Virus record (IMG/VR): IMGVR_UViG_3300020156_000441
Location: 1 to 61,037 of that record
DNA length: 61,037 bases
Direction: 5' to 3' (one strand)
Source: a virus
Lineage: Duplodnaviria; Caudoviricetes
Shown: positions 1,173-61,037 of the stretch, in pieces
Numbering within the stretch: position 1 is the first letter of the stretch
Layout of the letters: each line of letters begins with the position of its first letter
Notes under the pieces: model-generated
Databases searched by the model: none
Seen by the model: only the letters and a program-made list of their open reading frames with translations
What the model was told of the DNA's origin: nothing
Translations under genes and position numbers: made by a program

Positions 1173-1604
1173 ATGATCCTCGCCCACCCCCGTTCCCGGC
1201 CCAAGCCGGCCGCCCCCACGGCCGCCCCCACGGCCGCCCTCGCCGCCAGCCTCCCCGACAGTCCGGGCGGCGTTCCGTTCGGCAGCGCCGAGGAGGCGTG
1301 GTTCTGGTCCGTCCAGGCGCACGAGGCCAAGGCGGAAGGGGCGCGCGTGACGGCCGGCAAGGGTCTGGTCCCCCGCCCGTGCGAGCCCGGCGACGTGATC
1401 CGCGCCGTGGACCGGCTGTACCGCCAGCGCCGGCTGGTGCGCGACCACCTGCACGTGCTGGTGCACTACGGCCGCCGCCTGATGGCGCCCGACCCCGAGC
1501 GGTTCCGCGAGCAGCGCGCCAGCACCCTGTGGCGCGAGGCGTTCGACCACATCGGCCCGCTGCTGCGCGAGAAGGGCATCGTGCAGGCGGGACTAGCACC
1601 GTGA
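1173..1604 (+). CDS. Conserved hypothetical protein, first gene of the resident cluster (possible regulator)
   Basis: RBS GGGAG and ATG at 1173; non-repetitive globular C-terminal region (PFGSAEEAWFW...RPCEPGDV...LWREAF); overlaps the next gene. Confidence 0.65.
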   Translation: MILAHPRSRPKPAAPTAAPTAALAASLPDSPGGVPFGSAEEAWFWSVQAHEAKAEGARVTAGKGLVPRPCEPGDVIRAVDRLYRQRRLVRDHLHVLVHYGRRLMAPDPERFREQRASTLWREAFDHIGPLLREKGIVQAGLAP

Positions 1605-1993
1605 GCCGTCCCGCCTCGGCGCCGGTCCCGCCGGCCCCGCGCGCCTGGGTGGTGTTCAGCGGCGCGGCCGAGCTGTGGTGGCTGCGGCTGCTGCGGCCGG
1701 GCTTCCGCCATTGCTTCGTGGCGCTCGACGACGGGCGGCACTGGGTGGTGGTGGACCCGCTGGCGCCCTTCACCGACGTCGCCGTGCTGGGCGTACCGGC
1801 CGGCTGGGACGTGCCGGGCTGGTTCCGCTCGCTCGGCATGACGGTGGTCGCCGCCCCGGTGCGCCGCGGCCTGACGCGCCCCGCCCCCTGGGGCCCCTTC
1901 ACCTGCGTGGAGGCGGTCAAGCGCGTGCTGGGCCTGCACGCCCCCTTCGTGCTGACGCCCTGGCAGCTGTACCGCCGCCTGGGCGGCGCCTGA
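1601..1993 (+). CDS. Putative permuted papain-like (NlpC/P60 superfamily) peptidase/amidase
   Basis: His (FRHCF) precedes Cys (FTCVE), with a C-terminal TPWQL; GTG start overlaps the upstream stop. Confidence 0.55.
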   Translation: MSRPASAPVPPAPRAWVVFSGAAELWWLRLLRPGFRHCFVALDDGRHWVVVDPLAPFTDVAVLGVPAGWDVPGWFRSLGMTVVAAPVRRGLTRPAPWGPFTCVEAVKRVLGLHAPFVLTPWQLYRRLGGA

Positions 1994-2024
1994 CCCGTCT
2001 CCCCGTTTCTTCGGAGGTCCGTCC

Positions 2025-2480
2025 ATGGCCAACCTCTTCTCCGCCCCGAAGCCGCCGACGCCCGCCCCCGCGCCGGCTCCCGCCCCGGCACCGCCCCCGG
2101 CGCCGCCCCCGGCACCAGTTGTGGTCGAAACGCCGCCTCCGCCTCCGGCGCCCACCCCGCCGCCGGCCCCGCCGCCAGCGCCGGTCGTCGAACCGGCGCC
2201 GGTGGTGACGCCGTCGCCGCCGCAATGGGACCCGCCCTGGTGGGTGACCAACCCGCCGCCCCCGCCGTCCTACACGCCGGCTCCGGCACCCGCTCCGGCC
2301 CCTGCGCCAGCGCCGGTGCAGCAGCCGCCCGCCGAGCCGGACCAGGACCCGGAGGCGGTGGCCGAGAAGGCCATGCAGCGCCGCACGCGCAGCCGCGCCG
2401 GGACGGTGCGCACCTCCTGGCGCGGCGTGCTCGACACCAACGCGCTGGCGCCCGCGCGCAAGCGCCTCCTGGGGGAGTGA
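2025..2480 (+). CDS. Proline-rich small virion-associated protein preceding the portal
   Basis: RBS GGAGG, PA/PP-rich linker, C-terminal RKRLLGE typical of pre-portal genes in podoviruses. Confidence 0.6.
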   Translation: MANLFSAPKPPTPAPAPAPAPAPPPAPPPAPVVVETPPPPPAPTPPPAPPPAPVVEPAPVVTPSPPQWDPPWWVTNPPPPPSYTPAPAPAPAPAPAPVQQPPAEPDQDPEAVAEKAMQRRTRSRAGTVRTSWRGVLDTNALAPARKRLLGE

Positions 2481-2484
2481 CGCC

Positions 2485-59613: not shown

Positions 59614-59656
59614 GTTCCCGCCGCCGGGCATCCCGGCGGCGGGAAACACCGGCCGC

Positions 59657-60025
59657 TTACTTCTTCTTCCAGACCTCGGTGCCCTTGTTGCCCGGATCGG
59701 TGCGGCGCCACCACGGGCCCGACAGGGTGCCGTCGGGGTTCACGTTCATCAGCATGATGGTGTTCTTGCCATCCAGCACGGCCGCGATCGCCAGGACGCT
59801 GCCGGTCACCTGGCCGACGCCGACGTAGTCGCCGCCGTCCCACTTCACGCTCAGCGCGCCCGACTTCTCGTTCGTCACCACGACGGTGCCGGCCTCCTTG
59901 TAGGCCGAACCGTCGGTGTCGGTGCCGTTGTAGGTGTAGGTGCCGACGACGTTGGCCGACTGCGCCAGCGCCGCCCCCGCGAGGCCGACGACCAGCACCG
60001 ACGACAAAGCAAGCGTACGAAGCAT
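59657..60025 (-). CDS. Small secreted beta-rich protein
   Basis: Signal peptide (MLRTLALSSVLVVGLAGAALA) and RBS GGGG; antisense insertion within the cluster. Confidence 0.7.
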   Translation of the reverse strand: MLRTLALSSVLVVGLAGAALAQSANVVGTYTYNGTDTDGSAYKEAGTVVVTNEKSGALSVKWDGGDYVGVGQVTGSVLAIAAVLDGKNTIMLMNVNPDGTLSGPWWRRTDPGNKGTEVWKKK

Positions 60026-60180
60026 TATTTCCCCCAGTCTTCGTGTCCCAAGACGTTGCCGCGCCGATGGGCCGGGCAACGACGCGAAGCTACCGCATCG
60101 GGGGTAATGCGCAAGAGTAATCGTCGATCTCGGCGCCCGTTTTGAACGGCCATCAACAATATTTTCTTTCTGTAACGGAG

Positions 60181-60489
60181 ATGTCGATGCCTGAAACCAT
60201 GAACGTGGTCTGGTGGATCACGGCCGTCGAGCTGCCTGTTTTCGGCGGCCTGTTCTGGCTGATCGCGCGGCTGCGCAAGGATTCCGAGGACGCCCTGGCC
60301 GCGCTGCGCACCCGCGCGGAGGCGGCGCAGGCGCAGGTCCGCGAAAGCCTCGCCGCCTACAAGCTGGAGGTCGCCAAGACCTACGTCTCCTTCGGCACGC
60401 TGAAGGACGTGGAAACGCGCCTGACCGATCACCTGCTGCGCATCGAGCGCAAGCTGGACTGCGGCGTCGCCGACGGGGGTGTGCGATGA
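60181..60489 (+). CDS. Holin-like protein (one TM plus coiled coil)
   Basis: WWITAVELPVFGGLFWLI; C-terminal L.RIERKLD; coupled to the hydrolase. Confidence 0.6.
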   Translation: MSMPETMNVVWWITAVELPVFGGLFWLIARLRKDSEDALAALRTRAEAAQAQVRESLAAYKLEVAKTYVSFGTLKDVETRLTDHLLRIERKLDCGVADGGVR

Positions 60490-61037
60490 GCCGCGCCCGT
60501 CTGGTCCCGATGTCTCTGGTCCCGATGTCTCTGGTCCCGATGTCCGCCGCGACGCCGGCCGCCACTCCCGCCACCACGGCGCCGCCGGCCCCTTCCACCG
60601 CGCCCCCGGCCGCCGGTGGGCCCACCGAAGAAGCGGTCGACACCCTCGCCCGCACCCTGTGGGGCGAGGCGCGCGGCGAACCGGTTCGGGGAATCGAGGC
60701 GGTGGCGGCGGTGGTGGTCAACCGCGTCCGGCGAGCCGAACGGCGTGGCGGCCACTGGTGGGGCGGCAGCATCGTCGCCGTGTGCCGCAAGCCCTACCAG
60801 TTTTCGTGCTGGAACGCGAACGACCCGAACCGGGCCAAGCTGCTGGCGGTCACGGCGGCCGACCCGGTGTTCGCCACCTGCCTGCGCGTGGCGCGCCGCG
60901 CCGTTGCCGGGCTGCTGCCCGATCCGACCGGCGGGGCCACGCACTACCACCGTCTCGGCCTGCACCCGTCCTGGGCCACTGGCCATTCGCCGTGCGCGGA
61001 GATCGGCCGGCACCTGTTCTACGACGGCGTGGAATGA
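60486..61037 (+). CDS. Cell-wall hydrolase (SleB/Hydrolase_2 family)
   Basis: TLARTLWGEARGE, VVVNRV, YQFSCWN, PTGGATHYH and IGRHLFY. Confidence 0.9.
   Translation: MSRARLVPMSLVPMSLVPMSAATPAATPATTAPPAPSTAPPAAGGPTEEAVDTLARTLWGEARGEPVRGIEAVAAVVVNRVRRAERRGGHWWGGSIVAVCRKPYQFSCWNANDPNRAKLLAVTAADPVFATCLRVARRAVAGLLPDPTGGATHYHRLGLHPSWATGHSPCAEIGRHLFYDGVE
60501..60544 (+). repeat. In-frame 15-bp tandem repeat, 3 copies (LVPMS)
   Basis: CTGGTCCCGATGTC(T) repeated three times. Confidence 0.85.

Follow-up and report, generated by a model that had tools for sequence, protein, structure and literature searches.

The window analysed here is one complete contig of 61,037 bp, the whole of IMG/VR virus record IMGVR_UViG_3300020156_000441 (Duplodnaviria; Caudoviricetes) with nothing else in that record's genome, and it holds two elements, one inside the other: a siphovirus-type prophage (the inner prophage) and, on both sides of it, a cluster of genes typical of short-tailed phages (the outer cluster; 349-8590 + 51777-61037), which is our subject. 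An earlier note on this DNA had described what is left after removal of the inner prophage as a compact cluster of about 17 kb with head, tail, spike, large terminase (TerL), and lysis genes, and had read it as a domesticated particle system derived from a podovirus. Searches of the outer genes against Pfam, PHROG, and NCBIfam recovered every one of these elements (16.7 kb when counted from 1173, where the note began). The start of the cluster was moved leftward to a repressor gene at 349, with the control region in between belonging to it too, and comparison with relatives added a conserved gene at ~1646-1990 that had been missed. The reading as a domesticated, podovirus-derived system was supported by broad distribution, a fixed locus, the lack of mobility genes, purifying selection, and portal distances that follow those of host genes, and it gained added support, unforeseen in the note, from an Azospirillum clade in which the cluster is split over two loci.

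Because the GC content of the window is ~70%, genes were called from codon-position GC (frame plots) together with family searches (Table 1). The nearest phages are HTVC010P-type pelagiphages (HTVC010P, NC_020481.1) and the temperate Yersinia phage YeP4 (MK733262.1), with identities of 31-37% for the portal and 26-31% for TerL. YeP4 has homologues of the S24 repressor (placed divergently, as in the cluster), portal, capsid, tail tubular proteins A and B (tube A and tube B), spike N-domain, and TerL, and a phage RNA polymerase is encoded by none of the cluster, YeP4, and the HTVC010P-type phages. YeP4-like phages, however, have 35-kb genomes with integrase, DNA polymerase, primase, and helicase, all of which the cluster lacks, as it does three large open reading frames (ORFs; 708, 430, and 841 aa) that YeP4 carries between tube B and TerL, and unlike YeP4 and HTVC010P-type phages the cluster occupies a fixed locus in the host. 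The relevant part of Du et al. 2021 (PMC8477408) gives a "Rhodospirillaceae bacterium" as the source of the closest TerL homologue of HTVC010P phages (49-51%; not followed up).

Table 1. Coordinates of the outer-cluster genes, their cargo and repeats, and the interrupting prophage in the window (G, genomes; loci counted among the best 80, see text)
Position	Strand	Feature	Basis or occurrence
349-981	-	S24 autocleaving repressor, CI/LexA-like, N-terminal helix-turn-helix, 210 aa	PF00717 7e-25; phrog_4 2e-31
982-1172		Divergent control region	Motifs read from sequence
1173-1604	+	unk172, first gene of rightward operon	In 72/80 loci
~1646-1990 (ORF 1298-1993; true start not fixed)	+	cons150, conserved gene	Homologues in 77 loci
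2025-2480	+	Proline-rich small protein, conserved C-terminus	Matches in 18/80 loci; no family
2485-4002	+	T7-type portal (head-to-tail connector)	PF12236 5.4e-150
3995-4258	+	Conserved 87-aa gene between portal and scaffold	Homologues in G001, G002, G004, G005
4280-5011	+	Scaffold, T7 capsid assembly protein family	PF05396 7.6e-13; in 78/80 loci
5018-5046; copies 52257-52285, 56033-56061		GC-rich palindrome CTCCCTCCCCCGCC...GGCGGGGGAGGG	Repeat family D12
5211-7538	+	HAMP-PAS-GGDEF-EAL cyclic di-GMP (c-di-GMP) protein, cargo between scaffold and capsid	Pfam
7554-7628		Perfect palindromic REP/MITE-like element, arms 7554-7586 + 7596-7628	Related arms in 52.3-kb and 55.9-kb spacers
7934-8590	+	Major capsid, N-terminal 219 codons	PF19821 profile positions 1-244 of 293; phrog_3437 7e-55
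8591-51776		Inner siphovirus-type temperate prophage, 43.2 kb, not part of cluster	Gene content
11212-12360	-	Tyrosine integrase of inner prophage	Family match
51777-51935	+	Major capsid, C-terminal 52 codons + stop	Aligns with C-terminus of uninterrupted capsids at loci L009, L012, L072
51980-52249	+	Conserved 89-aa protein after capsid	phrog_18004 1e-19; in 49/80 loci
52257-52496; second copy 55817-56061		~240-bp composite repeat block filling spacer	Families D3, D12, D15, D18
52610-53176	+	Tube A (adaptor)	phrog_394 9.6e-48; weak PF17212
53173-55071	+	Tube B (nozzle)	phrog_376 5.8e-143; 33% identical to YeP4, 3e-83
55071-55805	+	unk269, coiled-coil Q/E/R-rich protein, N-terminal hydrophobic helix	No family beyond chance-level TolA match
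56081-58111	+	Tail spike: T7 fibre N-terminal adaptor domain + pectate-lyase-like beta-helix	PF03906, PF12708; phrog_1640 1e-30
58108 or 58150-59613	+	T7-type TerL	Frame plot, Walker motifs; NF033889 termin_lrg_T7 4.4e-125, above cut-off
59657-60079	-	Small secreted protein with signal peptide, cargo	No family
60142-60489	+	Holin-like single-pass membrane protein	phrog_29007 8e-31; transmembrane stretch
60486-61037	+	SleB/Hydrolase_2-type cell-wall hydrolase (lysin), cut by contig end	phrog_938 endolysin 4e-17; TIGR02869 domain

Relatives of the portal gene occur in at least 335 stretches of genome_contigs and, counted separately, in 295 records of IMG/VR, the latter mostly listed as "viral genomes" of 15-25 kb, i.e., the size of the cluster itself, and the entry of ~295 clusters in this form inflates prophage counts. 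Synteny was counted over the best 80 of the at least 335 loci from genome_contigs (misses fall mostly at contig ends), whose hosts are Azospirillum (79-83% portal identity), Niveispirillum, Magnetospirillum and Paramagnetospirillum (65-68%), and Micavibrio (~60%), along with Telmatospirillum, Caenispirillum, Terasakiella, Rhodovibrio, Defluviicoccus, Thalassospiraceae, and alphaproteobacterial metagenome-assembled genomes (MAGs). Cluster genes are colinear with the window in 78 of the 80, the holin or lysin module having moved within the cluster in the other two, and the repressor is present in 71. Among 130 genomes of the order of Azospirillum sp. OGB3 (G002), the portal was found in 104 (E <=1e-20), nearly always as one orthologous copy, and TerL was single copy in all 15 genomes searched. 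Outside these sets, a 5-kb, unannotated "Bacteriophage sp." record from a faecal sample (MT838907.1) has a portal 56.7% identical to that of the window, far closer than any cultured phage, and the record probably represents part of this domesticated cluster in an alphaproteobacterium of the gut.

The cluster sits among housekeeping genes. For five genomes, 40-60 kb were assembled around it: in G002, sdhA, sdhB, and a class-IV aminotransferase gene border it on one side, the other side having pyrD, a gene for an EAL protein, and thrS. The upstream neighbour in G003 is a class-I lysyl-tRNA synthetase (LysRS; gene lysK), and in Micavibrio the upstream genes encode NAD kinase and a phosphoribosyltransferase. 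Such flank genes are common to lineages, the repressor having the aminotransferase as its neighbour in 20 loci from several families, LysRS in 15, and Micavibrio-type flanks in 15-18. The patchy spread over variable loci that the earlier note had named as the contrary outcome was not seen. These flanks also bear on the possibility that a complete and still mobile temperate podovirus extends past the contig ends, in which case the cluster would be only its structural half, and its integrase and replication genes would be found outside the window. The window leaves room for this, since the contig begins ~350 bp before the repressor gene and breaks off on the right inside the lysin gene, and in YeP4 the integrase comes just after the lysis genes and the replication genes lie left of the repressor; absence of such genes from the window could therefore not exclude genes beyond its ends, and relatives were used instead. 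Against it, housekeeping genes flank the cluster in six relatives with contiguous clusters, and in G062, a relative with ~90% DNA identity, the left flank gene is the same as in other Azospirillum. The YeP4 DNA polymerase, helicase, and primase used as queries gave no match in 187 loci (2.68 Mb), and three integrase queries matched in only five of these loci, i.e., L098 and L094 (kilobases from the cluster), L108 and L109 (inserts splitting the portal gene), and L147, with every match either outside the cluster or within an inserted element. In G002, all ORFs between the housekeeping flanks were listed, and the main ones, the flank genes, and the small ORFs at the edges were scanned against Pfam, directly or via their window orthologues, with no integrase or replication gene among them. 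The claim that the cluster has no such genes thus holds in relatives with visible flanks, and a mobile podovirus extending past the contig ends is, in our judgment, extremely improbable.

Portal sequences further indicate that the cluster has travelled with its hosts. On a quick IQ-TREE portal tree of 81 rows, all chromosomal copies form one clade (support 99), with YeP4 and HTVC010P 2.5-3.6 substitutions per site away, and eleven genus labels required 11 changes (minimum 10), as compared to a mean of 20.7 after shuffling, none of 200 shuffles being as low. With host phylogeny proxied by neighbouring housekeeping genes and genus labels (NCBI labels of bins are unreliable), portal distances correlated with those of the aminotransferase (r=0.95; 20 loci), the Micavibrio flank genes (r=0.91 and 0.71; 16 and 17 loci), and, across 14 deep lineages, LysRS (r=0.34; 55 of 2000 permutations as high). 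Mean distances were 0.26-0.27 for the portal versus 0.32-0.39 for three flank genes, and 0.36 versus 0.33 for LysRS. Within the cluster, portal distances correlated with those of tube B (r=0.81; 40 genomes) and TerL (r=0.65; 13 genomes). Portal divergence following the host had been among the checks proposed in the earlier note, and these distances indicate that the cluster is vertically inherited and co-diverges with its hosts.

Selection points in the same direction. Pairwise Nei-Gojobori (NG86) ratios of nonsynonymous to synonymous divergence (dN/dS) were 0.03-0.21 for ten genes compared with G060, 0.06-0.42 compared with G062, and 0.12-0.54 compared with the more distant G038; over all genes and all comparisons they were 0.02-0.54, i.e., purifying selection in every gene, and the relaxed selection that would have spoken for decay was not seen. 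TerL and the coiled-coil protein unk269 are the least constrained, the latter evolving fast yet under constraint (dN/dS 0.11-0.49). An ordinary defective prophage, slowly decaying and of no use to its host, would fit the lack of integrase, replication genes, small terminase (TerS; in Azospirillum), and ejection genes, the broken portals or missing clusters of some genomes, and the broken capsid gene of the window. It would not be expected to keep intact ORFs across lineages whose portals differ by 35-40%, to have dN/dS values of 0.02-0.4 in every gene and a portal evolving no faster than its housekeeping neighbours (mean distances as given above, the portal being the slower in three of the four comparisons and at 0.36 versus 0.33 in that with LysRS), or to retain both halves intact where they have come to lie at least 185 kb apart. 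Decay of this kind is already largely refuted, and we regard it as very improbable.

That separation was found in one Azospirillum clade. In Azospirillum sp. A26 (G001), 341 kb separate the half with the portal from the half that runs from capsid to TerL, and in all of ten more genomes (hand-picked, non-random; portals 78-80% identical to the window's, on large contigs), portal and terL were on the same contig but distant, by 185-306 kb in nine and by 2.6 Mb in one (~0.7 Mb the other way if the replicon is circular); they were on opposite strands in one split genome. Portal and terL are free of stops in all 11 split genomes, five tail-half loci have capsid, 89-aa gene, tube A, tube B, spike, TerL, and holin-like gene all intact, and median dN/dS in the split clade is 0.02-0.23 for the tail half (10 pairs) and 0.06-0.23 for the head half (21-28 pairs). 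The cluster is contiguous in six other genomes (G002, G003, G004, G005, G038, and G062). Since the gene set has stayed intact and constrained after separation, it cannot be a self-transmitting phage, and with the halves at least 185 kb apart, one particle cannot carry the full set; judged from these genomes, the split loci are the strongest single argument for domestication. They also speak to a helper-dependent, satellite-like element that would partner an infecting phage. Replication, TerS, and ejection functions missing from the cluster could indeed come from a co-infecting podovirus, and 8 of the 130 genomes carry an extra portal paralogue (30-35%) that presumably belongs to an ordinary podovirus prophage. 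A satellite, though, would hardly occupy a fixed locus without integrase or excision function or be split over two loci in one clade, and satellites usually lack complete head-plus-tail sets, so we consider such a partnership quite improbable.

Motifs in the control region suggest how the cluster may be switched on. Region 982-1172 holds TTGACA at 1039-1044, TAGGAA at 1017-1022 and 1045-1050, and the box GAACATAAGAAGAAC (GAAC-N7-GAAC) at 1059-1073. An exact GAACN7GAAC or GTTCN7GTTC stands at the equivalent place in 29 of the 65 loci with a delimitable region (chance ~0.01 per region), 78-138 nt from the repressor start or, in L072 with its longer spacer, 209 nt. The Caulobacter SOS box is listed as GTTCN7GTTC in Table 1 of PMC9578287, the part of that paper drawn on here. 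In each of three relatives, a true lexA lies elsewhere in the genome, and of six regions upstream of lexA or recA, three hold the exact box close to the gene (lexA in G002 and G003, recA in G002). The repressor of the cluster is transcribed away from the particle genes and is 29% identical to that of YeP4 (7e-21); its annotation as LexA was rejected (TIGR00498, 31 bits versus a cut-off of 111). The element thus keeps its own phage-type repressor alongside a LexA-type box, and we infer double control by this RecA-sensitive repressor and host LexA.

Taking these lines together, we consider it probable that the outer cluster goes back to a YeP4/HTVC010P-like temperate podovirus, of which it would be a domesticated remnant passed on vertically, and that it is induced by the SOS response and works in the manner of a gene transfer agent (GTA). 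The host lineage would have kept head (portal, scaffold, capsid), short tail, T7-type TerL, and lysis module under the CI-type S24 repressor. DNA damage would activate RecA, the S24 repressor and the LexA sitting on the GAAC-N7-GAAC box over the rightward promoter would be cleaved, the operon would be transcribed, and TerL would fill procapsids. Given that no sequence-specific TerS is recognisable in Azospirillum, the packaged DNA would most likely be host DNA, taken without preference. The holin-like protein and the SleB-type lysin would lyse the cell and so release short-tailed particles whose spike may bind kin cells, and as no ejection-core proteins are recognisable either, the DNA, once delivered, would depend on the host for uptake and recombination, like that of other GTAs. 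In this contig the machine would be off because the 43-kb prophage has integrated in the capsid gene. A GTA is our best guess for the function and the cluster a candidate only; among domesticated functions, we give transfer roughly an even chance.

Several observations weigh against this interpretation. For every cluster member, the case for particles, packaging, and transfer is drawn from its genes, and in the window itself the capsid gene is broken. The portal is missing from 26 of the 130 genomes, and among the 104 with a portal, 12 best matches are partial or split and two have an in-frame stop (hand count). One alphaproteobacterial MAG has two full cluster copies (L057 and L063, on two contigs; portals as sister rows in the tree), reflecting either duplication or two strains binned together, and the Azospirillum label takes three changes on the portal tree (two MAG rows with Niveispirillum, one elsewhere). 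The exact box is absent from 36 of the 65 loci, including G002's own cluster, which has one mismatch, many others likewise being one mismatch off. TerL is the least constrained enzyme (dN/dS 0.23-0.54), with 58-62% identity within Azospirillum. TerS is not recognisable in Azospirillum, with nothing between spike and terL, so that the earlier remark on its absence stands for the window and this genus but not for other lineages, in ~11 non-Azospirillum loci of which a gene of 108-116 aa before terL (phrog_31793) plausibly encodes a candidate TerS. No ORF comparable to the large internal/ejection proteins of YeP4 occurs in five complete clusters, and the YeP4 internal-virion proteins as genome-wide queries matched in none of five genomes, a search insensitive at this divergence and uninformative either way. 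Finally, the SleB lysin is not beside the holin-like gene in the split clade and, with this query, is absent genome-wide from three of four genomes (G001, G026, and G040); release in that clade must use another lysin, or the system works differently.

Some of these points would sit more easily with a domesticated particle-and-lysis system that serves another purpose and packages DNA only incidentally, e.g., SOS-triggered altruistic lysis providing DNA or public goods for a biofilm, a spike-aimed killer particle against rivals, or a decoy interfering with related podoviruses. Conservation, selection, and the fixed locus fit such a system equally well, the lack of ejection proteins makes DNA delivery doubtful, a c-di-GMP gene is kept inside the operon throughout Azospirillum, and PBSX-like precedents are mentioned in the available portion of PMC12946183. 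For lysis alone or a tail-only device, however, TerL, portal, and scaffold would be needless, and they are under purifying selection; moreover, the lysin is the part that the split clade has lost, whereas head and packaging genes stay. We see a non-transfer purpose as a serious but rather unlikely alternative to the GTA-like working proposed above.

The inner prophage (8591-51776) is a complete temperate phage and encodes, besides its integrase, a CI-like repressor, prim-pol, D5-type helicase, HNH protein, TerS, and TerL, a structural set of portal, S49 protease, HK97-type capsid, major tail protein, and 2249-aa tape measure, and a lysozyme; all HK97-type genes of the window belong to it. An 8-bp direct repeat, GCCACTGG, lies at both junctions (8583-8590 and 51769-51776), and a search for long attachment (att) repeats flanking the prophage found only this repeat. 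The capsid is split between RLCHW and YHKT where relatives read RLCHWYHKTAVGH, with the C-terminal part in the window beginning YHKTAVGH and 100% identical in amino acids to G060 and G062. Both of these genomes (96-97% and ~90-94% DNA identity) have the empty site, i.e., an uninterrupted capsid, and the window flanks abut in G060 with an overlap of exactly 8 bp, so that precise excision at the repeat would restore the capsid frame. A 26-kb contig from soil metagenome run X1 is identical to the window from 8518 onward, and this run probably represents the sample that yielded the window. Short RNA-library contigs from two soil metatranscriptomes (X9 and X20) touch repressor, unk172, portal, scaffold, and capsid, as well as the inner prophage, and were not used as evidence of expression because DNA carry-over is possible, nor do gaps in their coverage carry any weight; in one such contig from a relative, the match ends exactly at 8590 and is followed by 23 nt more, as the empty site predicts, which we take as a hint only. 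Relatives of the inner integrase were not found beside the cluster at other loci, and so there is no sign that its phage family habitually uses the capsid site. Motifs of the GTTTTGCAG / CTGCAAAAC type lie in inverted orientation at 8591-8760 and 51690-51768, beside the 8-bp target repeat, and may be recombinase binding sites. The integrase is 2.6 kb from the left prophage end, behind two low-GC cargo genes, and low-GC genes stand at both ends (8753-11198, a 60%-GC pair encoding an NA37 nucleoid-associated-like protein and a 455-aa protein; 50389-51138, 46% GC, 249 aa); recent acquisition as cargo is probable for these genes, and neither the 455-aa nor the 249-aa protein has a family match.

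A second kind of insertion was observed in the portal gene, where at least six genomes carry an insert of 15-17 kb that breaks the gene at residues ~296-305: G017 (contig C2; L108, 1359-18215) and G023 (L109), with G047, G057, G116, and G051 recognised by split portal matches. The G017 insert encodes a tyrosine integrase, two DUF927 proteins, a TerL (gpA) and a portal both of lambda type, and a capsid protein, with no tail genes recognised, and by this gene content it has the make-up of a capsid-forming phage satellite with the portal gene as its attachment site.

A wider reading, which we offer tentatively, would have the cluster be an ancient, order-spanning, SOS-controlled, podovirus-derived GTA that arose independently of the siphovirus-type agent RcGTA and fills the GTA role in lineages without RcGTA-type clusters (Azospirillales, Rhodospirillales in the wide sense, and Micavibrio). 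Such an agent may have shed its ejection proteins, delivering DNA only as far as the periplasm and leaving the rest to host uptake and recombination, and mobile elements may have evolved to integrate in its capsid and portal genes because these belong to a fixed, conserved, lytic host function, with the effect of disarming a competitor for the SOS signal or of acting as a reversible switch.

The earlier note had also pointed to a c-di-GMP gene, a secreted-protein gene, and REP-like repeats lying between genes of the cluster, and none of these (5211-7538; 59657-60079; four repeat spacers) indeed interrupts a cluster gene. The GGDEF-EAL gene has matches in 17 of the 80 loci, at least three of them elsewhere on the locus (L022, L038, and L059), and throughout Azospirillum it keeps its place between scaffold and capsid (65-99% identity; dN/dS 0.03-0.43). 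The secreted-protein gene is present only in the close relative G062 (93%). Extra genes within the clusters of relatives are host-type cargo as well (Sel1 repeats, PRC barrel, PG-binding). The scaffold-capsid spacer holds 2-6-kb inserts in other lineages and is also the breakpoint of the cluster in the split clade. GC-rich palindromes number three in the outer 17 kb and none in the inner 43 kb. The 7554-7628 palindrome is very high-copy in run X1, where its bin reached a contig depth of 4780 (other bins, ~35-230) and had loose ends at either side. GC at third codon positions (GC3) is 0.945 in the outer genes, 0.939 in the GGDEF-EAL cargo, and 0.854 in the inner prophage; in G002 it is 0.927 for the cluster versus 0.911 for host flank genes, in line with the earlier remark that the cluster is as GC-rich as its host-type neighbours. 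The GC3 values and the host repeats that fill the spacers, and that are absent from the inner prophage, support a long residence in the host.

As to the remaining genes, unk172 is modelled by AlphaFold2 (AF2) as a four-helix protein (pLDDT 91) with no match in the three family libraries and no significant neighbour in PDB or BFVD; a likeness to the Q21 antiterminator (TM 0.40-0.45, E ~3.5) was under any threshold and was not relied on. cons150, recognised only via relatives, has an alpha/beta model (pLDDT 92.8) with no PDB match at E <1 and no Pfam or PHROG match, and an Atlas search with both proteins returned hypothetical clusters only. unk269 is possibly an internal virion protein. A tract within tube A (52724-53174) is 100% identical in DNA to G062, with flanking cluster DNA at 85-95% and a dS of ~0.2 in neighbouring genes, and looks like recent recombination between lineages. 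The spike gene has an internal direct repeat of 88 nt (57631-57718 / 57934-58021; 72% identity), which fits duplicated beta-helix turns. The capsid leader (7660-7930) carries a promoter-like TTGACA-N17-TACAAC and, right before the capsid start, a long GC hairpin followed by TTTT; generic promoter and terminator scans of the outer cluster, this leader included, were not above shuffled controls, and programmed internal terminators were dropped from consideration for that reason.

Should particles exist and carry host DNA, the cluster would represent a second, independently domesticated GTA lineage in Alphaproteobacteria, of podovirus build. Its hosts include well-studied, tractable genera, i.e., the plant-growth-promoting Azospirillum and the magnetotactic Magnetospirillum, and RcGTA-type agents are unreported from these groups. 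It also offers a natural case of mobile elements that use a domesticated phage's own genes as attachment sites. Particles of A. lipoferum were reportedly first described by Boyer et al. in 2008 and are said to have siphovirus morphology. The Azospirillum literature on GTAs, in the parts consulted, covers these 10-kb particles and RcGTA-like genes in prophage B510PP01 (PMC3899980, PMC3245306), and the unusually high horizontal gene transfer and genome plasticity of Azospirillum set out in the same passages are what a working agent would bear on.

Compared with known systems, the cluster resembles RcGTA and CcGTA in being a set of phage-derived head, tail, and terminase genes that lacks integrase and replication genes, is vertically inherited in a large alphaproteobacterial clade under purifying selection, is distributed over two or more loci in some hosts, and may likewise receive host regulatory input. 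It differs in build, RcGTA being of HK97/siphovirus type with a PF04860-type portal, the cluster having a PF12236 portal, a PF19821 capsid, tubular tail proteins, and a T7-type TerL; no homology to the HK97-type head-tail cluster of RcGTA (Rhodogtaviriformidae) was found, the outer genes matching T7/podovirus families only. The function of RcGTA is proven, whereas the cluster is known here from its genes. PBSX is a myovirus-type Bacillus element that forms a killer particle. Like PBSX-type elements (general knowledge; touched on in the available portion of PMC12946183), the cluster would be fixed in the chromosome, non-replicating, and inducible through the SOS response, making particles and lysing the cell under the control of a repressor of its own, but it has no homology to PBSX, which is also far narrower in taxonomic spread. 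RcGTA-type large clusters are described as absent from Rhodospirillales and Micavibrio, i.e., from lineages that hold the present cluster, in the section of PMC5721377 that addresses them. The closest parallel in build is FpGTA of Faecalibacterium prausnitzii, which the excerpted text of PMC12946183 (2026) presents as a GTA-like element made from short-tailed-phage genes, near-ubiquitous in its genus, and arranged in one genome as two operons ~125 kb apart; it differs in belonging to Firmicutes and in that particles and ~9 kb of packaged DNA have been shown experimentally. Given the phyla, homology between the two, which were compared by description only, is unlikely. The earlier suggestion of a new class of GTA has to be qualified in view of FpGTA, a podovirus-like system already described. 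No published description of the cluster was found in the full-text literature, although supplementary lists may hold such loci. Domesticated phage particle systems, including a podovirus-like one, are already known, and the present one is independent of them, very widespread, and apparently undescribed.

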